A stretch of DNA of 64,000 bases from Bacilli bacterium (lineage in GTDB: Bacteria; Bacillota_I; Bacilli_A; RFN20; DUOF01), in assembly GCA_045118975.1 (NCBI GenBank), contig JBGVCT010000003.1, positions 17,780 through 81,779 on the forward strand. Reading direction: 5' to 3'. Shown one piece after another: positions 18,975 through 52,499 of the stretch (its first letter is position 1; each line of letters opens with the position of its first letter). Position numbers and translations under genes: made by a program. Under the pieces are notes generated by a model. The model was given only the letters and a program-made list of their open reading frames with translations. It did no database searches and was not told the DNA's origin.

Positions 18975-18998
18975 AAGAAAAAGGAAATTAATTTCCCT
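18975..18998 (-). terminator. weak rho-independent terminator after the VirB4-like gene
   Basis: The palindrome GGAAATTAATTTCC spans the stop codon and is followed by TTTTTCTTTT on the minus strand. The stem is AT-rich. Confidence 0.4.
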
Positions 18999-21591
18999 TA
19001 TTCTTCTTAAAGTTTTGGTCATCTGTAGATTTTTTAAATGCTCTTTCTTCTTTTTCGCTAACCAAAATCTTATGCATAGTAATTCTTTGTCCTGGTGCAA
19101 CAACAAATAAACATTGTCCAATACCTGCGTTAGCGATAAAGTCTTTTTCTTGATCTGAGAATCCACCAACAGATGCATACAAGTCAATAAGTGACTGCAA
19201 GTCAGCAGGGTTAAGACCGAATATAAATGAGTATTGACAACCATTTATAATCGCCGTTGTATATTTTTTAATATTAACCGCACCAACAAAGTCGTTTACG
19301 TTTTGTGTGATAACAACGAAGATACCATTGTATTTTCTAATACGCTTAATCATGTTGTGCATGAATAGCAATGCAGCAGGGCTCTTTTCATCAATGAATA
19401 CGTGTGCCTCATCTACTACGATAGCAATGTGTCTATTATCACCTTTTGCCAAGTTGTGTTCTCTGTTTTTGCTTACTTCATTTTCTAAGAATCTAAGTAC
19501 AAGCATCATTTGAGCGTTCATTACTTGGTCATTTTTAGAGTTTGTCATTTTTCTAAAGTCAAACAGGATTAAATCACTGTTCTTTGTATCAATTGTAGTA
19601 GGTCCATTCCATAAGTTAGATAGCGAACCTTCTCCACACAATCTATCCATATAAACTTCTAGGTTTCTTAAATCATTTAATTCACTACCAACCTCTACAG
19701 CTCTATTACTATCTTTAACAATAATATCGCTAAGTTCAGCAATTCTTTGTTTAATAATGTTCATGATATCATCCATTACAGGGAAATCAGTAGCCTTATA
19801 TTTTACAAAGTCTTCATATTTAGAAATTCCTTTTTCTTCATATGCTTGGCTAAACATTTTAGAAAGTCTTGAAACCTCTCTGTTTGTCATATCAGGAATT
19901 AAGTTTTGCATAAATTGTTCTAAGAATTGAATGTGGCTAGAGAAAATAGATCTATAACCATCTCTCATTTCTTCTTTTGTTAACACCTTATCTCCCGCTT
20001 CTTCTTGCATTACACCAAAGATATGGAAAGGGTTAATTCTAGAGTTATTACCACTACCAACGTCGATGATTTGACCACCAAGTCTTTGAGTCATGATATC
20101 ATATTCTCCTTCAGGGTCAACAATGAATGTTTTAACACCCTCAAGAATCATCTTAAGTAACATTTTCTTTGTAAAGTGAGACTTACCACTACCAGACTTA
20201 CCAATAATCATCATGTTAGAGTTAGTTCTAGAAGGACTTCTTGTTTTAGGGTCAAAGAAAATCAAACTTGATTCATTATAACCCAATAAGAATCCATCTC
20301 TATCTTTAAGATCTTGGAACATAAATGGGAAAGATGCACCTAAAGTTGATGAAGGGATATCTCTACCATTAGTTAAAATAAGATCATCTCTTGGAGATGG
20401 TAACATAGATATAAGACCAGTCATTTGTCTCATAAGTAGCTTATCTACTTTAAATCTATGTTGTTTAAATTGGTTAAGCACTTTTCTATTTGTTGTTCTT
20501 AATTCTTTTTCATTCTCAGCATATGTCATTACATAAATACCGATTAATTTTAAGTATTCATTACCTCTTTCAATATCTCTTAAAACTTCAACGAAAGAAT
20601 CTAATTGAGCTCTTTTAGCCATGTTTTCAGACATCTTTCCTCTTTCAAGAATTTGAGTGTTAATTTCTCTTATCGCCTTATCCATTAAAGCTTTGGCAGT
20701 AGATTGTTCTACATTTCTAATATTCATAACACATGTTGTATTTGGCATACCAACAAGAGGAGTTAACCAAGCTCCAGTTACTTCTCCTGGATAATCATAT
20801 GTTGAGAAAATAGATTCATGCACAGTATCTGTTTTAATCTTTGTTGCAAAGAACTCAATATTCTCTGGCATAATCTCTTTTTTATAATCAACCTCAGGAT
20901 GGCTAAAGAATGACTCTTTTCTTCTTCCTGTTGGATTATAGAAATAATAATACATAGTTTTAATTTCTGCATCATTACAAACTTTTGGTTCAAGTTTAGT
21001 AATAGCAAGTTTTTCGTAAGCATCATCTGTAGCACCTAAAACAGTCTCTTTGCTACCATGATATAAGATGATATAGAAAGACTTAATCATAACCGGATAA
21101 TCAGTGTTGTAAGCATTGATTAAATCATATTCATATTGAATTTGATTTTTTCTTTGTTTATATCCATCCTCTGACATTTCCTTGTCTGCAAATTTTTTAT
21201 CAAGTAGCCCAAACATACCTACTTGTTTATCTACAGAAGTAGTCAAATCTAACTTTCTTTCTAATTTTAAAATTGTACAATCCGTACTTACGCTATTAAA
21301 TACACTAGCAAGTTGTCTCATTTTAGACATTTGCTCTTCATGAGAAAGGTATGAAATGTTTAAAGAACCAACCTTAATAACTTTACCATACTTACCGTTT
21401 GTAAATGTAATAAGTCCATTTTCAATACTACGAATAGGAAGGAAATCTAAAATATCTCCACCTTTTCTTGCTGCGTTTTTAGCAGCTTGTTCTTTTCTTA
21501 GTTTTTCTTGTCTTTCAGCTTCTTTTTTCTTAGCGTCCTCTGCTTTCTTTATGCTAGGATCTGCTTTTTCTATAACCTTACTTCTTGCCAT
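18988..21591 (-). CDS. VirB4/PrgJ/TrsE-family type IV secretion ATPase
   Basis: The 867 aa product has the Gram-positive VirB4 N-domain (DFLPIRSIENGLITFTNGKYGKVIKVGSLNISYLSHEEQ), Walker A IIGKSGSGKS (20179-20202), Walker B HIAIVVDEAH, and VVITQNVNDF. Confidence 0.9.
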   Translation of the reverse strand: MARSKVIEKADPSIKKAEDAKKKEAERQEKLRKEQAAKNAARKGGDILDFLPIRSIENGLITFTNGKYGKVIKVGSLNISYLSHEEQMSKMRQLASVFNSVSTDCTILKLERKLDLTTSVDKQVGMFGLLDKKFADKEMSEDGYKQRKNQIQYEYDLINAYNTDYPVMIKSFYIILYHGSKETVLGATDDAYEKLAITKLEPKVCNDAEIKTMYYYFYNPTGRRKESFFSHPEVDYKKEIMPENIEFFATKIKTDTVHESIFSTYDYPGEVTGAWLTPLVGMPNTTCVMNIRNVEQSTAKALMDKAIREINTQILERGKMSENMAKRAQLDSFVEVLRDIERGNEYLKLIGIYVMTYAENEKELRTTNRKVLNQFKQHRFKVDKLLMRQMTGLISMLPSPRDDLILTNGRDIPSSTLGASFPFMFQDLKDRDGFLLGYNESSLIFFDPKTRSPSRTNSNMMIIGKSGSGKSHFTKKMLLKMILEGVKTFIVDPEGEYDIMTQRLGGQIIDVGSGNNSRINPFHIFGVMQEEAGDKVLTKEEMRDGYRSIFSSHIQFLEQFMQNLIPDMTNREVSRLSKMFSQAYEEKGISKYEDFVKYKATDFPVMDDIMNIIKQRIAELSDIIVKDSNRAVEVGSELNDLRNLEVYMDRLCGEGSLSNLWNGPTTIDTKNSDLILFDFRKMTNSKNDQVMNAQMMLVLRFLENEVSKNREHNLAKGDNRHIAIVVDEAHVFIDEKSPAALLFMHNMIKRIRKYNGIFVVITQNVNDFVGAVNIKKYTTAIINGCQYSFIFGLNPADLQSLIDLYASVGGFSDQEKDFIANAGIGQCLFVVAPGQRITMHKILVSEKEERAFKKSTDDQNFKKNKGN

Positions 21592-38131: not shown

Positions 38132-40729
38132 TTATTTTTTATTATTATTTTTCTTTTTTGAAAACGACTTTTCAATCCTATCAAAATGTGAATCTAAATA
38201 TCCTAAATATCTATAACATTCTTTTTTTACTTCCCCAATAGAGGAAATTCCTAACTCTATTAAAATATCTTCACCTATAGTCCCTTTTAAATATAAACCT
38301 TCTAAAACATTTATATTTTTTTCCCATTCTTTATTTCTGGAAGGATTTAGTTGATTTTTCATTACAATTAAATACCTTTTTTTATCATCCTCATTTGCAT
38401 TATTCATTAACAATGACAGTTCTTCTACACTATACTTTCTTATACCATTTTCATCTATCTTATATTCATAGGTCAAAGACTTATATTTCTTTTTAAAACT
38501 ATCAAGACCTATTAAATCAATATAATCCTTATCAATGATTTTGATAAAGAAGTCATCTAAATTCATGCTTTTTTTGTCTTTGTCGACCCTTTTAATGCTA
38601 TGACTATACTTTAATGAACTTTCAATTTTTTCAAGTTGTGCCATCTTTTCGTCAAGAGACTTATTTGGATTATCCAAACCAAACAATGCATCTGTTAAAA
38701 GTTTAGCTTTAAACTCTGTATCAAATTCAAAACTCACCCAATCATAATTACTCTTATAATAATCTTCTCCTAAAATATCTCTCAATATTTCATCTTTTGC
38801 ATAATAATTAATATCCGGATCATCATCAAAATTAGCTTCTTCAATATTCTTGAACTGTATAGCGTGATTTATCTCATGATGTAAAGTTTTAATCATATCA
38901 TAAACACTTCTATCATGCCCATTATATAAACTAACTCTTTTATGTTCTCTATTTTCGCAACCATAAGTATCTTTATCTTTACTATAGTCAAACACTTCAA
39001 CAGAATAATCACCAACACCATTTTTATTCAATACTTTAAGTGCATACATTTTAATAGCTAACATTTCTTCAAGTGTTAACTCACTTCTTTTTTTGTGTTG
39101 AAGAGAAACTATAACATCTTCTAATGACTCTTCTTTTTTCATGATTTTAAGAAGATACTGCTCATCTTTTTGTTCATACAAATATCTTTTAAAAGTTGTC
39201 TTTTCAAGCAAAACTCTAGTGTGATGATTAACATTCAACTTATCCAGTATATCTTGTCTAGTAAGATAATTACTAGATAACATGCTCATAGCTAAAGTGC
39301 CATCTTTAAAAGCGTCTAAAATTAAGTCTATGTCTCCTTCTTTAAACTCATTACTATATCTATTTCTTGGGATATCCAAAATTAAATTTCTAAGCCTAAA
39401 GTAGGTATCTTCAAAGAAGTTACTTTTATCAAGTTCATTCTTTTTTAATAAAATATTTTTCAATATTTCCATTGCATAATGAGAAGGGATATCCAAAAAA
39501 GTCTCTTCATCATATCTAACTCCAAGCATAATTGCAGCCATATTTACATCTATTTCGCTAAGAACTCTAAGCGCCCTATAATCAGCATACATAACAAAAG
39601 AATCCACATTTAAAATATCATGATTTAAAATAACCTCTTTATATCTAGCATATTCTTCATCGCTTATTTCATGACTTGTAAACTGCTCGATATACTCCAT
39701 ATCTCCTCGATCAAAAGCTTCTTTTAAGACTCTAGCTGTTCCATCAAAATCATTGCTTAAAGATGCTAAAACAAAATTAAAATTAATATTAGCAACTCTA
39801 GGATAATTACTCAATTTAAAATTGGTATCTTTTAAAAGTTCATATAATCTCTTTGAATCATTATCAGATAATAAAACCCTTATATAAGAACCCTCTATAT
39901 TGTTTAAAAAATTCTTATATGCATGTTTATTTTCTAAACACGAAAAAAATAACTCTGGTTCTATATTAAATACCCCAAGCATTTCTATTATCTTCTTTTT
40001 TTCTTCCTCACTATGAGGGTTAGTAAAAATTTCTTCTAATCTAATTAAACACTCTATATATAATTCATCATTATCTTTAATAGCTTTTAAAATTTGATAT
40101 GCCCTAACATATAAAGTCTCTATCGCATCCTTTTCTAAAGACACTTTGATTAAATCATGATATGCACATGCAACTTCAATGCTATTTATATCAATAACAA
40201 AATTATGCCTTTTTAATATCTCTCTAAACTCTTCCCTGTCTTCACTAGAAATAGGAATATTTAAATGTTGTTTTAGAAAATCTAAAGTATCTTCATAATT
40301 GTTATTTAATGATACATTTATTAACCAAGGATTTTGATGTGCAAAATAAGCCATGTTATTATTTATAACAAATCCTTTATTCTTTAATATAGACTTTATA
40401 TTATTATTTACACTTAGCTTACAGCCATGTTTAATTAAACAAGAAAGTGTATATTCATAATTGTAAGATAAACTTTTTTCTAAGAGTTCTTCATTACAGG
40501 CAAAAGCGCTATAATTATAATCATTAATCCTAACACTATCTTTACTTAACAAATAGTCACTAACTTCTCTAGGATATTTTTTAGACACCCACTCCATGTA
40601 ACTTTTGTTATTTACAACCCTTGAAGGAGTAGAACTATCTAGAATATATTGCTCTCTTTTTAGAATTTCTATTTCTTCTTTTGAAAGTGGTGTATCACTA
40701 TTATTTTTTAAAACATCTTCTAATTTCAT
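38132..40729 (-). CDS. large repeat protein with a C-terminal HExxH zincin-like module (paralogue B, 865 aa)
   Basis: The ATG at 40729 lies 5 nt after AGGTGG, which overlaps the TAG stop of the upstream paralogue. There are about 6 degenerate ~55-67-aa repeats, and HEINH lies at 38864-38878. No signal peptide or TM helix is present. Confidence 0.75.
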   Translation of the reverse strand: MKLEDVLKNNSDTPLSKEEIEILKREQYILDSSTPSRVVNNKSYMEWVSKKYPREVSDYLLSKDSVRINDYNYSAFACNEELLEKSLSYNYEYTLSCLIKHGCKLSVNNNIKSILKNKGFVINNNMAYFAHQNPWLINVSLNNNYEDTLDFLKQHLNIPISSEDREEFREILKRHNFVIDINSIEVACAYHDLIKVSLEKDAIETLYVRAYQILKAIKDNDELYIECLIRLEEIFTNPHSEEEKKKIIEMLGVFNIEPELFFSCLENKHAYKNFLNNIEGSYIRVLLSDNDSKRLYELLKDTNFKLSNYPRVANINFNFVLASLSNDFDGTARVLKEAFDRGDMEYIEQFTSHEISDEEYARYKEVILNHDILNVDSFVMYADYRALRVLSEIDVNMAAIMLGVRYDEETFLDIPSHYAMEILKNILLKKNELDKSNFFEDTYFRLRNLILDIPRNRYSNEFKEGDIDLILDAFKDGTLAMSMLSSNYLTRQDILDKLNVNHHTRVLLEKTTFKRYLYEQKDEQYLLKIMKKEESLEDVIVSLQHKKRSELTLEEMLAIKMYALKVLNKNGVGDYSVEVFDYSKDKDTYGCENREHKRVSLYNGHDRSVYDMIKTLHHEINHAIQFKNIEEANFDDDPDINYYAKDEILRDILGEDYYKSNYDWVSFEFDTEFKAKLLTDALFGLDNPNKSLDEKMAQLEKIESSLKYSHSIKRVDKDKKSMNLDDFFIKIIDKDYIDLIGLDSFKKKYKSLTYEYKIDENGIRKYSVEELSLLMNNANEDDKKRYLIVMKNQLNPSRNKEWEKNINVLEGLYLKGTIGEDILIELGISSIGEVKKECYRYLGYLDSHFDRIEKSFSKKKNNNKK

Positions 40730-40738
40730 AACAACCAC

Positions 40739-43700
40739 CTACGAAATCTTTCTTTTAAATTCTTCAGTAGAAATTCTTTTATCGCTTTCAATAATTTTTT
40801 CAGCAATACCTAAATATTTGCTAACAAAAACCTCATTTTCCTTAACAAACATCCTATATTCATCATTCAACTCATCCAAAATTTCTTCTAAAAGACCATT
40901 TAATTCCTCATCACCTTTAATAGTTTCCATAAATAAATCTATATCTTCCATATAACTAGAATTATAAAGCGGATCTAATCTACATCTAAATATAGATTTA
41001 TAAACCTCTTTATCCAATTCATTTGCTTGCTTATATGAAGACACTAATTCTTTTACATCATATTTTTTTACTGGTGATGAACTTATATCGTATTCATATT
41101 TAATTATCGGATATTGTTTCATTAATTCCTCAATATCTATAATCCCAGTACGCACACAAATATTTAAGCAATATTCAAACAGGTCATCCAAAAGATAATC
41201 TTGACCATCAAAAGATCTGTGAGCAGTTAATGAATACTTATTACGCTCTGCCCCAAATCTAGTTAGACTCTCCCTATCAACTAAGGTAGAGACATCTTCC
41301 CCTTTATGTAAAAGTTCTCCCTCTAATCTTAAAACTTTTAAAGCTTCCATTTGAGATTTAAGCTCCGTATCATATTCAAAACTTATAGCCCAATAATTTT
41401 CCATATAATAATCAAAATGGCAATAATTTCTAAGCACTGTCCTAATTATCTCATCTTTTGTATATAATATAATATCTGGATCGCTTGTAATATCTAAAGT
41501 AGTTATATCTATCTTTTGCTTTGCATGATTATTTTCATGAATAATAGTTTCTACCATACCATGTATCGATTCATCATGACCATTATAAAGCCTTAATTTA
41601 GATCCTCCATATGCCCCTAAATTTGTCTTAGAAGGTCCATAAACATAGGTGTCTACTTTACAATTTTCAATTCCTTTTTTATATTGATCTTTTTTAGCAA
41701 AAAACGCTAGGGCCAACATTTGAGTAAGGGATAAATCTTTTTTAGTCTTAGATATACTTTGTAAATATGCAAGTTCATCTTCAATGCTATCAAATTTACT
41801 ACCCAAACATTTTAGTAATCTTATTTCATCTTCTTTAGAGTAAACATAAGATTGATTAAAATATATCTTTTCATATAATTCTTCAACCTCTTTGCTCTCT
41901 AAATATGGTGCTATTTGTTCAAGGCTCTCAAAAGGAATATAAGCAAGTGGCGCCCCATGATCTATAAGAAATTTCATATACTTTTCTGTTTGACCATTCT
42001 TTTTTTTCTTTTCATCACCAAAAATTCCCCATGCTATAATAGAGACAAACTTTGGATATTTGCTTAAGTCTACTTTTCTAGTCTCACTTATACTTATAAG
42101 TTTTTCCATTACCTTTTCACTACTTGCTTTGTCCATCATAGCAAGTGGCCTATCATTTCTTTCTACCTCTTCCATTAACTTATCAAAATTTTTCTCTAAC
42201 CTTCTTACCATTAAAGAAGGAGTTCTTGAAAGTAACCTATAAAATAGTTCCTCATCTTGCCCGCTATTCCACAATATAGAAACAATTTTACTAGCTTGTT
42301 CATCATTTATCTCTACATCATTTATAGGTAACTTAGAATTCATTAAAAAGCTTCTTGTACCATAATAATCATTTTCTAAAGCCGCAATTAAGAATAAAGG
42401 ACTTAGAAATAGTAACCCACCTGTTTCCTTAGTAAATGTAAAATTATTAGATCTTAAAATATTATATATGGCCGCCATTGCCTCAGGATTATTTATTCTT
42501 AATTGAGTATTTCTATCTCCCTTTGCCATATTTGCAATAGTTCTATCATAATTTTGATGTAAAGCTTGAACTAAAATGTCGTTATCTTGAGAAATAAATT
42601 CTCTAATTGTAGAATTAAATTTTATATCGTTTTGAGTAATTCCCTCTACCATTAATTTTCTAACAGTAGATGGAAACATAGTAACCTTCTCTTTTACAAA
42701 ATCCTCAAGGACAAACAACTCATGAATACCATGTTTCATTGTCTTTACAAAATCATTTTTTAAAGACACCTCAAACATTAAATCCACTAAATATGGATTA
42801 TTATCTTTATAACCAGCAACATAACCTTTATTTTTTAGTTCATCTTTTATAAAAGCAGATGTAATAGACTCAAACTTACTCACATCACATGAAGCAAGAA
42901 GTTTTAATCCCTCCACATAATTATCTTTTAATATTTCTCTAATAACTGAAGGTCTTTTATTAACCAAACTTGTAAGTGCTTTTCTTGCATCATATGATGG
43001 ATGTAATCTATCCACATTTTCTACAAGAATTTTCTTAATTATTTCCTTATTATTGTCTATATCTAAATAATCCCAAATATGTTCTCCTGATGTTAAGGTA
43101 GCAAAAGGATCATTTCTAAATGATTTTCTTATTATTCTAGTCATTACATCATTGCTAACTAAACTCTTAAAAGACATATATAAATCAGAGTCTATAACAA
43201 AACCTGGTTTAGATGTTAAAATTTCTTCTACATCTAAATTCAATAAATATTCTCTAAATTCTCTTGTATGTCTCCCTTTAGCTAAAGTAACAACTGTGGT
43301 ATATGGGTCATTTTCCATAGATATATCAGCTATGCCGGGACTTAAATGCAATAAATTCAAAGTAGATACACTTAAAACAAAATTATTGCTTTGTAAAATA
43401 GGCTTAATTGTCCTATATAAATCGTAAGCTCTGCTATTAGTAAGTCCAGATTGAGACATATCTGATAAAACAGATAGAGTTTGAGCATAATCATTTTTTA
43501 ATGAAAGCTCAGCAACTTCTGGCCATATCTTCACAAGTCTAGCGCTATTTGTATCAATAACAAAATTAGGGCCCAAAACCTCTATTATATCTCTTGGAGA
43601 AATTCCATATAAATATATTCTGCACTCTTCTATCTTTCTAAAAGTATATTCAGGATCGTTTCTTAAAGATACTGCAATTAAATATGGTTGAGCTACAACT

Positions 43701-44341
43701 AAATCAACATTATCCTCATCTATTAGAAAATCGTGATTATTATCAATATATTCATTAATTATTTCTTTTGTTAAAATCCCTTTCAATGAAGAACTATATC
43801 TTTTTAAATACTCAAGCGTTGCTTCTTTGTTATTTTTAAATGACCTAACAAGCTTAACTCTAGCCATATCGTCCCCATCAAATATATTATCCATATTTGA
43901 CCCATCAACACCCAATACAAAAGTTTCATCTTGTTTTATATTATCTTCCAATATTTTATATACTTGAGGATTTAAAAAATCTATCCAAGTGTCCTTAAGC
44001 GCATCAATAACCTCATCATATCTATACTCTAATAACTTACCCTTTATAGAGGGACAAAGCAAGTATGCCTCTACGTTGGTATTATTAATTATAATTGTAT
44101 TTGGATCCACAATCGATTCGATAATATCTCCAACTCCAGGTATAGTTCCATATTTAGATACAAAAGTCGCAAAAAAAGCAGCACCTGACTCATATGCATA
44201 TCTAACAATCTCTGGATATTGTAAAATCACATTTTGAATTTCCTCAATACCTGGCTCTGTTAAAACATATGATCTTAAAAAGCGTTCTTTCTTTTCGTTA
44301 TCTAAATTCTCCAAGATGTTAACCATATCTATATTAGCCAT
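40739..44341 (-). CDS. large repeat protein with a C-terminal HExxH zincin-like module (paralogue A, 1200 aa)
   Basis: It has RBS GGAAGGTG, about 10 degenerate ~60-aa repeats (NF[VT][IL]...P.L[IV]..SL.ND[YPF]..T), and HENNH at 41525-41539. No signal peptide or TM helix is present. Confidence 0.75.
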   Translation of the reverse strand: MANIDMVNILENLDNEKKERFLRSYVLTEPGIEEIQNVILQYPEIVRYAYESGAAFFATFVSKYGTIPGVGDIIESIVDPNTIIINNTNVEAYLLCPSIKGKLLEYRYDEVIDALKDTWIDFLNPQVYKILEDNIKQDETFVLGVDGSNMDNIFDGDDMARVKLVRSFKNNKEATLEYLKRYSSSLKGILTKEIINEYIDNNHDFLIDEDNVDLVVAQPYLIAVSLRNDPEYTFRKIEECRIYLYGISPRDIIEVLGPNFVIDTNSARLVKIWPEVAELSLKNDYAQTLSVLSDMSQSGLTNSRAYDLYRTIKPILQSNNFVLSVSTLNLLHLSPGIADISMENDPYTTVVTLAKGRHTREFREYLLNLDVEEILTSKPGFVIDSDLYMSFKSLVSNDVMTRIIRKSFRNDPFATLTSGEHIWDYLDIDNNKEIIKKILVENVDRLHPSYDARKALTSLVNKRPSVIREILKDNYVEGLKLLASCDVSKFESITSAFIKDELKNKGYVAGYKDNNPYLVDLMFEVSLKNDFVKTMKHGIHELFVLEDFVKEKVTMFPSTVRKLMVEGITQNDIKFNSTIREFISQDNDILVQALHQNYDRTIANMAKGDRNTQLRINNPEAMAAIYNILRSNNFTFTKETGGLLFLSPLFLIAALENDYYGTRSFLMNSKLPINDVEINDEQASKIVSILWNSGQDEELFYRLLSRTPSLMVRRLEKNFDKLMEEVERNDRPLAMMDKASSEKVMEKLISISETRKVDLSKYPKFVSIIAWGIFGDEKKKKNGQTEKYMKFLIDHGAPLAYIPFESLEQIAPYLESKEVEELYEKIYFNQSYVYSKEDEIRLLKCLGSKFDSIEDELAYLQSISKTKKDLSLTQMLALAFFAKKDQYKKGIENCKVDTYVYGPSKTNLGAYGGSKLRLYNGHDESIHGMVETIIHENNHAKQKIDITTLDITSDPDIILYTKDEIIRTVLRNYCHFDYYMENYWAISFEYDTELKSQMEALKVLRLEGELLHKGEDVSTLVDRESLTRFGAERNKYSLTAHRSFDGQDYLLDDLFEYCLNICVRTGIIDIEELMKQYPIIKYEYDISSSPVKKYDVKELVSSYKQANELDKEVYKSIFRCRLDPLYNSSYMEDIDLFMETIKGDEELNGLLEEILDELNDEYRMFVKENEVFVSKYLGIAEKIIESDKRISTEEFKRKIS

Positions 44342-44362
44342 AACCTACACCTTCCTAATAAA

Positions 44363-44371
44363 ATTATAACA
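44363..44371 (-). promoter_or_regulatory. extended -10 promoter element upstream of giant paralogue A
   Basis: On the minus strand, TGTTATAAT lies 21 nt upstream of the ATG and downstream of the TPR-gene terminator. Confidence 0.4.
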
Positions 44372-44411
44372 TGGTTATAATTCACTTCCTATTTTTTTTA
44401 AACATATTCCC

Positions 44412-44442
44412 CAAAATAAAAATAGAGATTTTACTCTCTATT
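44412..44442 (-). terminator. rho-independent terminator of the TPR gene
   Basis: Hairpin AATAGAGA-gtaaaa-TCTCTATT followed by TTTTATTTT. The stop codon lies in the loop. Confidence 0.6.
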
Positions 44443-45324
44443 TATAAATTCTTTAACTATTGAATTATAGTCAATAGGTATGCCCTCTTTTATAGCCACA
44501 TCAATAAATTCTTCTTCATTAAATTCTAAATCTCTATCTAAAGGTTTAATCTCTTTTAATTCCTCATATAATTCTTTTACTGGATTCAAACTATAACTCT
44601 TTTGATACATTAAAAACTCATAGTCTTTATTAATAAATTTATAACAATAATTACCTACAAAATAATAAAAATCCCCTAAATCTTCTTGTCTATGTATATA
44701 TTTGTGAACTTTTAATAGCTCTTCTTTTGCTTCTTCAAATTTCTTATTTACCTTAAGTAGCAAAGCCTTAAAAAAATACGCTTCCTTTAGGAATGGATTG
44801 TATGTTTTAGCCAAATCAAACGACAATAAAGCTTCATTAGTTTTATTTTCTTCAAGTAAAATTCTACCATACATAAAATAAGCAAAACCTTTATTAAGAT
44901 CTGTATATATAATCTCTCTATCATCATCATTAATTAGATTATATAACTCTCTTTCCTCTTCGTTATCAATATATACAATATTAGCAAACTCATCATTCAA
45001 ATAACTATTAGAAAAAGATTTAATCATTGATTCCAATAATTCTTTTACTTCTTTTATTTTTCCCTTTTCAAAATATTCATTTCCAAGAGCAATTCCATAA
45101 TTAATGCTCTCATTATACTTAGCTAGCATTTCTAAATAGGCCTCTTTTTGAGGCTTATCTAGATATAATTTTTCCTTTATTAAAATCTTATCTAACAGAT
45201 TCTTATATCTTGGATGACTCTTGTATTTTTCCTTTTTTATATCAAGAATCTCTAAATTACTTTGATAGTCATTACTCAAATCTCCAAAAACATCATCAAG
45301 CAATTCTTTTATTTCCTTTTCCAT
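44431..45324 (-). CDS. TPR-like helical repeat protein
   Basis: The 297 aa product has TPR-like A/Y/F periodicity (EALLSFDLAKTYNPFLKEAYFFKALLLKVNKKFEEAKEELLK). Confidence 0.5.
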   Translation of the reverse strand: MEKEIKELLDDVFGDLSNDYQSNLEILDIKKEKYKSHPRYKNLLDKILIKEKLYLDKPQKEAYLEMLAKYNESINYGIALGNEYFEKGKIKEVKELLESMIKSFSNSYLNDEFANIVYIDNEEERELYNLINDDDREIIYTDLNKGFAYFMYGRILLEENKTNEALLSFDLAKTYNPFLKEAYFFKALLLKVNKKFEEAKEELLKVHKYIHRQEDLGDFYYFVGNYCYKFINKDYEFLMYQKSYSLNPVKELYEELKEIKPLDRDLEFNEEEFIDVAIKEGIPIDYNSIVKEFINRE

Positions 45325-49323: not shown

Positions 49324-51138
49324 CTATCTTTTATTGTTATTTGTATTGTTTTGAAGTTTCTTTTTTTCATTTAGTAATTCTTTTAATTGTCTTATAGCAT
49401 TCTTTAAATCACTAAATAAAATATCATATGGTTCATCACTTTCAAGATCAACACCAACTTTCTTTAGTATTGCATCTGGGTAATCATTTCCACCACTCTT
49501 TAACAATTCAAAATATTTCTCTTTCATGTTATTTTTATCATTCAAGATACATGTTGCAATATAGTTAGCGCTAGTAAAACTTGTTGCGTATTTATAAACA
49601 TAGAAAGGTCTATAAAAATGAGATATTCTAATCCATTCATATTCTAATAGTTCATCTACTTCTACAACTCCACCAAAATGCTTATCCAATACTTTGCGAT
49701 ACTCTTGTTTAATAACTGGTAAATTAACAGGAACTTCTTGCTCAATAAGAGAATGCATTTTTTCTTCAAATTCACTAAACATAGTTTGTCTAAATACTGT
49801 AGACTTAATATTTTTTATATATCTATCCAAATAATAAATCTTGTCATCGATATCTTGGCTATTTTCTAACATATACTTATTCAATAAAATCTCATTAACT
49901 GTAGAAGCAACTTCTGCTACATATATAGCATATCCTGCAGTTTCATATGGTTGATTCTTATTTGAATAATAACTATGCATCGCATGTCCTGCTTCATGTG
50001 CTAAAGTTGACATACTATTATAGTCATCAGTATTATTTAAGAAAATAAATGGATGTGTATCATAACTTCCAAATTGATATCCTCCACTAGATTTTGTATC
50101 ACTAGGATATACATCTATCCATCTTTCATTATAAGCCCTATCAAGTAAAGAAACATATTCCTCACCAAGTACTGCCAAGGCTTCTTTTACTATCTTAAAT
50201 TGAGTTTCATAATCAAATTCTTTATCTAAAGAACTTATTGAAATATATGTATCATAATATTTAAATTCATCAAGTCCTGATTCGCTCTTCAATAAAGAAA
50301 AATATTCCTTCATAACATCAACATTTTCGCTTACTTTGTTCACAAGATTGTAATAAACACCCTCAGGAATTCTACTACTCTTTAATACTGCACTTAAGTA
50401 TGAATCATGATTTCTAATTGATAAATCCGATGATCCAGACTTTAAATGATATACAAATAGTTTAGAGAATGTATGTGCAAATTGTTTATATACATCATAT
50501 AGTCCAGTATATGCTTTTTCTCTTACTTCTCTATTCTTATCGCTCATGTACAAACCATATAGTTCATCTGTAAGCTTGTACTCTTTATCTCCCACTTTAA
50601 ATGATTTGAAAGCTAAATTTGTGTCAATCAAGGTGTCATAAATATCACTGAATCCACCATCATAACTTGAAGTGATAGATAAAGCTCTCTCTTCAATTTC
50701 ACTCAATACATGCTTCTTGTTTTGAATAATAGACTCAAAGCTAATCTTATGATCCTTAAACTCTTCTTTTTCTAATAATTTCAAATAGAAGTCATCATTA
50801 TTTGCAGCAAGTTCTGGACTAATAAATGATGTAGCCATAGATAATTTATATTGTAAATTTTCAATTTTATTTAAATTAGTTTGAAATGTGTCATCTTTTA
50901 AGGCTACATCATGTCCTAAATAACTATATAAGTATAGATTCATAAACTTTCTAGAATACCATTCATTAAATTCTAAATATTCTTTTAACACTTCTTCAGT
51001 ATTTAATCTTCCTTTATATTCTTCATATTTTCCTACATTAGCCATAAGTTCTTCATAATCTTGATCCCATGCTTCTTGACTAGGATATATATCTTTTAAG
51101 TTCCACTTATACTTTTCTAAAGCTTCTTCTCTTTCCAT
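49324..51138 (-). CDS. pepF: oligoendopeptidase F (M3B)
   Basis: It has HEAGHAMH and is 604 aa long. Confidence 0.9.
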   Translation of the reverse strand: MEREEALEKYKWNLKDIYPSQEAWDQDYEELMANVGKYEEYKGRLNTEEVLKEYLEFNEWYSRKFMNLYLYSYLGHDVALKDDTFQTNLNKIENLQYKLSMATSFISPELAANNDDFYLKLLEKEEFKDHKISFESIIQNKKHVLSEIEERALSITSSYDGGFSDIYDTLIDTNLAFKSFKVGDKEYKLTDELYGLYMSDKNREVREKAYTGLYDVYKQFAHTFSKLFVYHLKSGSSDLSIRNHDSYLSAVLKSSRIPEGVYYNLVNKVSENVDVMKEYFSLLKSESGLDEFKYYDTYISISSLDKEFDYETQFKIVKEALAVLGEEYVSLLDRAYNERWIDVYPSDTKSSGGYQFGSYDTHPFIFLNNTDDYNSMSTLAHEAGHAMHSYYSNKNQPYETAGYAIYVAEVASTVNEILLNKYMLENSQDIDDKIYYLDRYIKNIKSTVFRQTMFSEFEEKMHSLIEQEVPVNLPVIKQEYRKVLDKHFGGVVEVDELLEYEWIRISHFYRPFYVYKYATSFTSANYIATCILNDKNNMKEKYFELLKSGGNDYPDAILKKVGVDLESDEPYDILFSDLKNAIRQLKELLNEKKKLQNNTNNNKR

Positions 51139-51179
51139 CTACTTTTCACCTCTATATATTTTGTAACTATATTTTTAAA

Positions 51180-52499
51180 TTAATCTGCTAAAGTTCCCAT
51201 TGGATCCCATGGATTTAAATGTATAGGCTTTGATTTTAATTGTTTCTTTTGTTCATCGCTTAAATACTTCTTATCCACAACTGCTTGATATACAAATCTA
51301 TCAAACCATGTATCACTACACATATAATATCCTTTATAAGCAACATCTCCACCCCAAGAGTTTTCTATCTTCCACTTAGTTGGTATATCATCTACTAAAT
51401 TAACACCAGTTAAAACCATCGCATGATTCATTGCACTATTTCTATAAAGTAATGATTCTTCTTTAGTTAAATTAAAATCTATTCCAAAACTTTCATTATA
51501 TGTAAACAACTTATCATCCCAATTACCTTTACTTCTATCACCATAATTAGAACAATCGCTACCAAACCAAACAATCTCCTTGTTAGTTAATTGTTTTAAA
51601 ACAAGATTTTTAAATTCTTTCATCTCAAGATTTAAATATAAAATATCTTCTCCATCAATAACATTACCAAGATAATCTACAGTATATGTTTTATTAAATG
51701 GTTTATCTTTTGTAGGAGCATTAATAATACTTACATAGTTTTTTAATACATCACCAACATAATTGCTATAGAATTCTAGTGGCATGATGTCTTTGATCAT
51801 GTGATATTCTTTATTTTTATCAACATATTCAAAATCGAACTTAGTAGGAGGCACACCAAAACAAGTGCACAATAAGTTATATGCATCCACCATAACCTTA
51901 TCTTTTAAATCTCTAATTTTATCTTCATTTTTTTCTTTTCTAATATCAGCATTAAACTTTCTAAGCATTGAATTGATTAAATAGTTCATTTGTCTAGTTC
52001 CACTACTAGCGCTTGTTTCAGGCATAGCGTCCTTACTAACTAAACCGTATTTTTCAACAACATTAACAAACATATCCCATTGTCCACCATCGGCAATACC
52101 CGTAGACAATAACCAAACTAACACTCTATCATCTTCATCTTTATTTCTAAGTTCAATTGATTTTTCTAAGATAAAATTAATCTTTTCTAGTTTATCGTAA
52201 AAAGCAACATAGTTTTGAGAAAATTCAAAGTTTTCAATATTATATTTATGACCAATAATTTCTCTTAAGAAATTAAGACCGGCAAAAATCCAACATCTTC
52301 CACTTTGCTTTTGATTAGTTGCACTCATTGTAGGAATATCCACGCTAAATCTAAATGCATCTTTCCCCTCTGCTTCTATATTATAAGTAGAGTTATTTAT
52401 ATCATTTTTTGCTATTGCTCTTCTTAGAGTAGTTAAATTAACATTCTTTTTATAATCTTTATTTGCCATTTCTAGCCATTCTTTTGTTATTTCTTTCAT
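51180..52499 (-). CDS. pepC: aminopeptidase C (C1B, bleomycin hydrolase-like)
   Basis: It has the catalytic-Cys motif QKQSGRCWIFA, NHAMVLTG and ENSWG. Confidence 0.9.
   Translation of the reverse strand: MKEITKEWLEMANKDYKKNVNLTTLRRAIAKNDINNSTYNIEAEGKDAFRFSVDIPTMSATNQKQSGRCWIFAGLNFLREIIGHKYNIENFEFSQNYVAFYDKLEKINFILEKSIELRNKDEDDRVLVWLLSTGIADGGQWDMFVNVVEKYGLVSKDAMPETSASSGTRQMNYLINSMLRKFNADIRKEKNEDKIRDLKDKVMVDAYNLLCTCFGVPPTKFDFEYVDKNKEYHMIKDIMPLEFYSNYVGDVLKNYVSIINAPTKDKPFNKTYTVDYLGNVIDGEDILYLNLEMKEFKNLVLKQLTNKEIVWFGSDCSNYGDRSKGNWDDKLFTYNESFGIDFNLTKEESLLYRNSAMNHAMVLTGVNLVDDIPTKWKIENSWGGDVAYKGYYMCSDTWFDRFVYQAVVDKKYLSDEQKKQLKSKPIHLNPWDPMGTLAD

Follow-up and report, generated by a model that had tools for sequence, protein, structure and literature searches.

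Genes A and B, which lie next to each other on the minus strand of a 64,000-nucleotide stretch of a Bacilli bacterium genome (the window, i.e., the whole stretch of DNA that was analysed), encode giant proteins, the C-terminal ~370 residues of which are likely to form an uncurated, cytoplasmic zincin-like metallohydrolase module built on a minimal core of the type seen in IrrE/ImmA (M78) and SprT/Spartan; we infer its mechanism below. Taking sequence comparisons and structural models together, the best-supported account of the two proteins would be that they are cytoplasmic metal-dependent hydrolases, with a peptidase as the most likely kind. What is new is a rare, unnamed family of ~144 sequence clusters within a well-known fold class, with a motif set of its own (HExxHxxQ, YYxxNY, SxExDA and a distal Arg), in which a minimal IrrE/SprT-like metal-hydrolase core is joined to a novel ~60-amino-acid (aa) repeat. 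The family leaves the general knowledge of zincins unchanged; its curation would annotate proteins that are now "hypothetical" or nameless and provide a testable catalytic hypothesis. The genes, modules and motifs in question are as follows, with the residues of B numbered in an 868-aa frame, i.e., +3 relative to the 865-aa frame considered further below:

40739..44341, minus strand: gene A, 1200 aa, with an N-terminal repeat array and a C-terminal zincin-like module (from the open reading frame (ORF) list and translation).
38132..40738, minus strand: gene B, 868 aa if read from the GTG at 40738; the shorter paralogue of A.
40742..41899, minus strand: C-terminal module of A, residues 815-1200 (from BLASTP against B and alignment A2).
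38135..39232, minus strand: C-terminal module of B, residues 503-868, the sequence used for modelling with AlphaFold2.
41252..41746, minus strand: zincin-like core of A, residues ~866-1030, placed through the alignment to B.
38603..39085, minus strand: zincin-like core of B, residues ~552-712, predicted as a helix, three strands, the HExxH helix, two short helices and the Glu helix (from models, Foldseek and hhalign).
41525..41539, minus strand: HENNH of A (H935, E936, H939), followed by A-K-Q.
38864..38878, minus strand: HEINH of B (H621, E622, H625), followed by A-I-Q.
41363..41383, minus strand: SFEYDTE of A, the first Glu of which (E989) is a candidate third metal ligand.
38714..38734, minus strand: SFEFDTE of B, the first Glu of which (E671) is a candidate third metal ligand and falls near the start of helix 167-184 of the model.

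Both proteins contain one HExxH each and none further. When sequences are shuffled at matched composition, at least one such motif arises with a probability of 0.018 for A and 0.041 for B, and hence a single HExxH proves little; it is the conservation across orthologues and the wider family that leads us to reject chance, the invariance of the motif in relatives ruling out such an origin. Between the paralogues themselves, the C-termini are 34% identical over a 321-residue BLASTP alignment (E 5e-36), with the two HExxH motifs at aligned positions. The preliminary description of this DNA had quoted peptides that are indeed present, with HENNH and HEINH at the positions listed above, and had recognised that HExxH and a downstream Glu are kept in both paralogues, which stands. 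Some of its particulars have to be amended: the spacer from LYNGHD to HExxH, put at 12, counts 11 residues; the Glu, placed about 45 residues downstream, lies 46 residues after the second His in B (E671) and 50 in A (E989); and the sequence around the motif, taken to have diverged heavily, belongs to a conserved module that spans the whole C-terminal ~370 aa.

A word-indexed search recovered nine orthologues, five of the A-type and four of the B-type, in all of which the H, E, H, A and Q positions are invariant, along with D, KD, YxxNY, ExDT and several later positions. The orthologues of A (P0009-P0013) share 38-59% identity with it in the C-terminal module, against 28-50% when full lengths are compared; LYNGH is kept in close orthologues only. 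The preliminary description had made its peptidase reading depend on the conservation of the motif in orthologues, and HExxH is invariant in 9/9. Further, while a word-indexed search with a 62-sequence alignment returned 4 proteins only, a hidden Markov model (HMM) search with the module alignment against 1.84 billion (1.84e9) representatives retrieved 144 at E<=1e-3, 97 at E<=1e-10 and 51 at E<=1e-30. Every representative that spans the region carries HExxH, nearly always with xxQ after it, and the motif is invariant in 121/121 of those with at least 240 aa that contain it. H, E and H are the sole invariant columns of a 123-sequence alignment, with the downstream Glu and the Q(+3), Y, N and Y at >=90%; of the columns of a 55-sequence core alignment, the four of H-E-H-E are invariant and no others. 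That Glu (E671 in B, E989 in A) shows no variation in alignments A5 and A7, and A3 and A4 keep it in at least 90% of their sequences. The positions conserved family-wide thus read T-x-x-H-E-x-x-H-x-x-Q, K-D, Y-Y-x-x-N-Y, S-x-E-x-D-A and a later Arg. After HExxH, the family alignments show no conserved third His; conservation falls instead on the Q(+3) and the distal Glu. The members come almost entirely from metagenomes of small-genome uncultured Bacilli, and a cluster look-up yielded no informative names for them.

The predicted structure points in the same direction. AlphaFold2, run on the last 366 residues of B with a 10-sequence alignment, gave a module model with a mean predicted local distance difference test (pLDDT) score of 84.8 and a predicted template modelling (pTM) score of 0.80. 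Its elements follow one another as a helix (54-70), three strands (77-79, 91-94 and 99-102), a helix (110-131), two short helices and a helix (167-184), with HEINH as fragment residues 119-123 within helix 110-131 (block pLDDT 89-95) and the conserved Glu near the start of helix 167-184. Thus, the N-terminal helix and small beta-sheet come directly before the active-site helix, and it is these elements that the hhalign alignment to M78 spans. A core-only model, though less confident (pLDDT 76), agrees on the placement of HEINH and leaves the topology unchanged. In Foldseek searches of the PDB, the whole module matched nothing significantly, with PprI, Spartan, jannalysin, CapP and Wss1 among the weak matches, and zincins made up 16 of the best 20 matches of the core model, including IrrE 3dti, PprI, Spartan 6mdx, jannalysin/selecase, MATCAP, CapP and Wss1. 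The structure prediction that the preliminary description had proposed as a check returned a zincin-like topology, i.e., helix, three strands, HExxH helix and Glu helix, but only weak PDB matches, the best being IrrE 3dti at E 0.039. Among predicted viral structures (BFVD), phage proteins of the IrrE-N-like and SprT-like kinds make up almost all of the named matches near the top, with E-values from 7e-4 to 5e-2 and a probability of about 1.0 (IrrE-like 7.2e-4, SprT-like 1.8e-3).

At the level of sequence profiles, scans of A and B with Pfam, NCBIfam, PADLOC and PHROGs found no family at threshold, the PHROGs matches being weak and to families of unknown function; judged from these scans, the A/B family is outside every curated family. 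Profile searches against the zincin families of Pfam had also been suggested at the outset: no model reached its cut-off, and the sub-threshold HMM matches fell on zincin families only, namely DUF6782, SprT-like, M48, MPTase-PolyVal and Zn_peptidase_2. The sole Pfam model with a repeatable match is DUF6782 (PF20573; cut-off 27 bits), which reaches 17.9-20 bits in 5/10 close members over 58/241 model positions, covering the strand and the HExxH helix; a literature search on DUF6782 found nothing. In a Pfam scan of 76 distant members there were stray weak matches only, to SprT-like (3/76, best E 3e-4), DUF6782, M48 and MPTase-PolyVal. Six-frame searches of the genome with SprT-like PF10263 (gathering threshold 25.6 bits) and Peptidase_M78 PF06114 (gathering threshold 22 bits) had no match on A or B at E<=10. 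The M78 matches were located elsewhere in the genome, among them one on a true M78 protein and one on PepF, an M3 peptidase; the weak cross-match of the M3 enzyme (18-21 bits) indicates that zincin HMMs cross-react around HExxH. This enzyme, oligoendopeptidase F (Peptidase_M3, 604 aa), lies in the window together with a C1-like aminopeptidase (439 aa) at 49324-52499 on the minus strand, 5-8 kb upstream. Searches of PDB sequences with a single module and two profiles gave nothing significant, the core profile having one match, to Spartan, over the strand and the HExxH helix at E 0.69.

Profiles were also compared with profiles. For this we collected 20 true M78 and 9 SprT-like ORFs from Bacilli genomes and obtained the following with hhalign:

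Family core against M78: 91.8% probability, E 7e-7, 71 columns.
Family core against SprT-like: 69.7% probability, E 4e-5, 41 columns.
SprT-like against M78, as a yardstick: 54% probability, E 1.3e-4, 38 columns.
Any of these against an unrelated repeat alignment, as a negative control: at most 0.5% probability, E 0.13-0.49, 1-9 columns.

By this measure, the family is as near to M78 as recognised zincin families are to one another. The central claim of the preliminary description, an HExxH-type zincin-like domain with a conserved downstream Glu, is supported by conservation, model topology and remote zincin similarity taken together.

The family placement that it had offered fared differently. 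The HExxHxxQ spelling resembles the motif of the DUF4157/eCIS-core zincins of polymorphic toxins and of the cargo of extracellular contractile injection systems (eCIS). We regard it as extremely improbable that the A/B domain belongs with these: in a six-frame genome search at E<=10 the DUF4157 HMM (PF13699; gathering threshold 22 bits) matches neither A nor B, and it is absent among the 10 members scanned at E<=10 and the further 76 at E<=0.01; M78, SprT-like and DUF6782 are all nearer. Moreover, the neighbours of A and B present no eCIS, toxin-immunity or secretion context, and PADLOC found nothing on the two genes. Membership in DUF4157 was rejected on the HMM result for A, B and the 86 scanned members. 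The only weak eCIS_core/DUF4157 match in the genome (G000:C3:148462-148563; 17.7 bits, below cut-off) is in a 229-aa frame ~67 kb past the end of the window.

Among known systems, the closest is Peptidase_M78/IrrE-ImmA (PF06114; e.g., Deinococcus IrrE/PprI and Bacillus ImmA), which is both the best profile-profile match in hhalign and the best Foldseek match in PDB and BFVD. The two have in common a minimal cytoplasmic zincin core comprised of a helix, a small sheet, the HExxH helix and a downstream Glu, which in A and B is a candidate ligand. In IrrE this Glu comes ~27 residues after HExxH. The spacing in A and B is longer, at 46-50 residues. Their family is further set apart from M78 by Q, YYxxNY and SxExDA motifs of its own, by an extension of ~150 aa at the C-terminus and by the repeat arrays at the N-terminus. 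The helix-turn-helix (HTH) repressor partner that is a feature of M78 is not found beside A and B, Pfam scans of their neighbours showing no HTH family. SprT-like/Spartan/Wss1 proteins (PF10263) display the same strand-turn-helix arrangement, "G...I.I...(T)l.HExxH", and account for Foldseek matches that include 6mdx, Wss1 and many phage SprT-like proteins; however, SprT-type enzymes have a third His after HExxH, in place of which the A/B family has its invariant Glu. With DUF6782, a putative metallopeptidase family, the similarity is confined to the strand and the HExxH helix and stays below the cut-off. Finally, the minigluzincins (jannalysin, abylysin and selecase) and the M48/HtpX core give short local structural matches of 75-105 columns, some with a root-mean-square deviation of 2.9-3.5 A (E 0.19 to >1); these share the HExxH-plus-Glu logic with A and B and have no relation to them at the sequence level.

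On this basis, a gluzincin-type arrangement of HExxH and a downstream Glu is plausible for A and B. Briefly, we advance the following mechanism. The two His of HExxH and E671 in B or E989 in A, possibly with the Asp two residues later (D673 in B), would hold a metal, probably zinc. The Glu of the motif (E622 in B, E936 in A) would then serve as the general base, activating a water molecule for hydrolysis of a peptide bond, whereas the family-specific Q, YYxxNY and Arg positions might line the active site. Both paralogues are probably active, since both keep the full conserved set.

Several observations weigh against this interpretation. No curated HMM reaches its cut-off on either A or B; no solved structure is matched at E<=1e-3 when the module and core models are compared with the PDB by Foldseek; the models themselves were built from shallow alignments of 10-12 sequences; the hhalign alignments end soon after HExxH, leaving the region of the putative third ligand without support from homology; and across six homologous loci there is no conserved gene neighbour that points to a substrate. 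The lack of a peptidase family match at threshold bears especially on the kind of chemistry, as do the YYxxNY, Q and Arg positions, which have no counterpart that can be mapped on M78 or SprT-like proteins: the module might have a zincin fold but act as a metal-dependent hydrolase of another bond, or as a non-catalytic metal-binding scaffold. We consider this quite unlikely, for active zincins are expected to keep the catalytic Glu of HExxH along with the ligands, which is the pattern of invariance seen here, and fold and profile comparisons both place the family nearest to proteases.

Turning from the predicted peptidase module to the rest of the proteins, the N-terminal repeat array noted in the preliminary description is confirmed, and it accompanies the domain in the wider family. 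The two arrays are:

42272..43852, minus strand: repeat array of A, residues 164-690, about 9 degenerate ~60-aa repeats (from an HMM iterated from one repeat unit).
39689..40528, minus strand: repeat array of B, residues 71-350, about 4-5 repeats of A's type (from the same HMM).

The ~60-aa repeat matched no Pfam family and, going by these comparisons, is novel. Repeats of this type occur in 1-4 copies before the module in 31/142 family representatives, which implies that the repeat-plus-module combination is the ancestral build and that A and B are expanded versions of it. The repeats might provide a scaffold that recruits a substrate or partner.

Neither A nor B has a signal peptide or hydrophobic segment, the maximum Kyte-Doolittle 19-residue mean being 1.37. 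A secreted or membrane protein was rejected, and of the earlier suggestion that these proteins are "intracellular or exported" the second half finds no support; both would operate in the cytoplasm without a secretion signal. The same observation would also suit a different fate, namely that the family members are substrates or effectors of a machine related to type IV secretion systems (T4SSs), exported without a signal peptide via a basic C-terminal tail; they would then be metalloprotease effectors that a repurposed conjugation apparatus delivers to neighbouring cells, the tail serving as the export signal. The C-terminal 20-mers of the family have a median net charge of +2 as against -0.6 per 20 aa overall. 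Further, a VirB4-like ATPase is near-universal in the taxonomic family of this genome (f1, 10/10) and in a second one (f14, 48/49), both of them gut Bacilli with small genomes, and sporadic elsewhere in the class, and these same two families hold nearly all the matches to the module; a VirB4 gene lies 17 kb from A and B in the window, and the homologue in genome G419 has the end of a VirB4/VirD4 cluster about 5 kb away. Nevertheless, we deem this scenario very unlikely: two lineages do not make a statistical test, within each of them the ATPase occurs universally and so without tracking the zincin gene, most genomes have the genes on different contigs, and unrelated genes intervene in G419.

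Some details of the tails and of the secretion-like clusters may be recorded here. Many short members (among representatives P0016-P0036) end in a K-Y-x-G-Y-F-Y-K-x-x-G-N-K-R-like tail; the tails of B and its orthologues are rich in Lys/Arg, and that of A is not (+1). The ATPase in the window, at 18988-21591 on the minus strand, is a VirB4/TraG-P-loop protein of a T4SS-like cluster. The cluster in G419, a distant small-genome relative (locus L030, G419:C3:38500-56500), comprises a VirB4-like ATPase, a SpoIID-domain protein and a VirD4-type coupling protein and ends ~5 kb upstream of the zincin-family gene, with a formate/nitrite transporter, a YhcG nuclease and RmuC in the gap.

The immediate neighbourhood, made up of housekeeping genes, suggests one more alternative. 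Upstream of A are genes for a TPR-like 297-aa protein, a diacylglycerol (DAG) kinase, a PP-loop protein, ThiF and a D-Ala-D-Ala carboxypeptidase, and downstream of B are two SpmA/SpmB-like genes. If A and B were co-transcribed with the latter, whose namesakes act in spore core maturation, they might be sporulation-stage proteases or morphogenetic proteins, holding the upstream place that dacB has in the dacB-spmA-spmB operon of Bacillus subtilis. In keeping with this, both downstream genes have the Gate/nucleoside-recognition domain typical of SpmA/SpmB; the stop codon of B precedes the spmA-like gene by 41 nt, a gap that holds no terminator-like hairpin, the first being located after spmB; and the order u297-A-B-spmA-spmB-u199-queH is kept in a metagenome-assembled genome (MAG) of the same genus. 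However, this synteny is shown within one genus only. In other genera of the same family the short homologues sit in unrelated neighbourhoods, either between desulfoferrodoxin and RNase J or beside HD and UDG genes; the domain family extends to f14, with its genomes of 0.8-1.3 Mb; and A has an extended -10-like promoter of its own, albeit as a consensus match only. Taken together, a sporulation role is unlikely, although not negligibly so. A phage, defence or toxin locus was considered and rejected for A and B.

Returning to the predicted cytoplasmic hydrolases, the 297-aa gene directly upstream of A (44431-45324, minus strand) has a faint TPR_2 match only; its product is 79% identical to that in the same position in the same-genus MAG. 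The gap between it and A (44342-44430, minus strand) contains, behind the 297-aa gene, a weak hairpin that is AT-rich and carries a T-run, and an extended -10-like element, TGtTATAAT, located 17 nt from a poor -35, these being consensus matches only. G+C content runs at 27-33% in the window, and the strand bias there is strong.

As to distribution, the family is present in 5/10 other genomes of f1 and in 9/49 of f14, and is nearly absent from the remaining genomes searched. Those relatives that have a name are MAGs labelled "Bacilli bacterium", including one from sheep rectum, and a contig search for related loci found one locus, in a sheep-rectum Bacilli MAG. In the present genome (about 1.07 Mb, 85% complete) A and B, both of them expanded copies, together occupy 6.2 kb; that a reduced genome should invest so much DNA in them suggests an important role.

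Finally, the arrangement of the two genes throws some light on how they might act and arise. Adjacent and on the same strand, with expanded repeat arrays, A and B are tandem paralogues. The TAG stop of A occupies 40739-40741 and is overlapped by a GGTGG Shine-Dalgarno sequence preceding an ATG at 40729. With GGTGG directly after this TAG and then the ATG, B most likely starts at 40729 rather than at the GTG, giving 865 aa in agreement with the database entry P0003. Hence, B may be translationally coupled to A, and such coupling suggests that the two act jointly. A second pair of family members, of 537 and 533 aa, occurs in another genome (L016, G034:C6:27900-44600) ~6 kb apart on opposite strands, implying that the family gene has been duplicated more than once.

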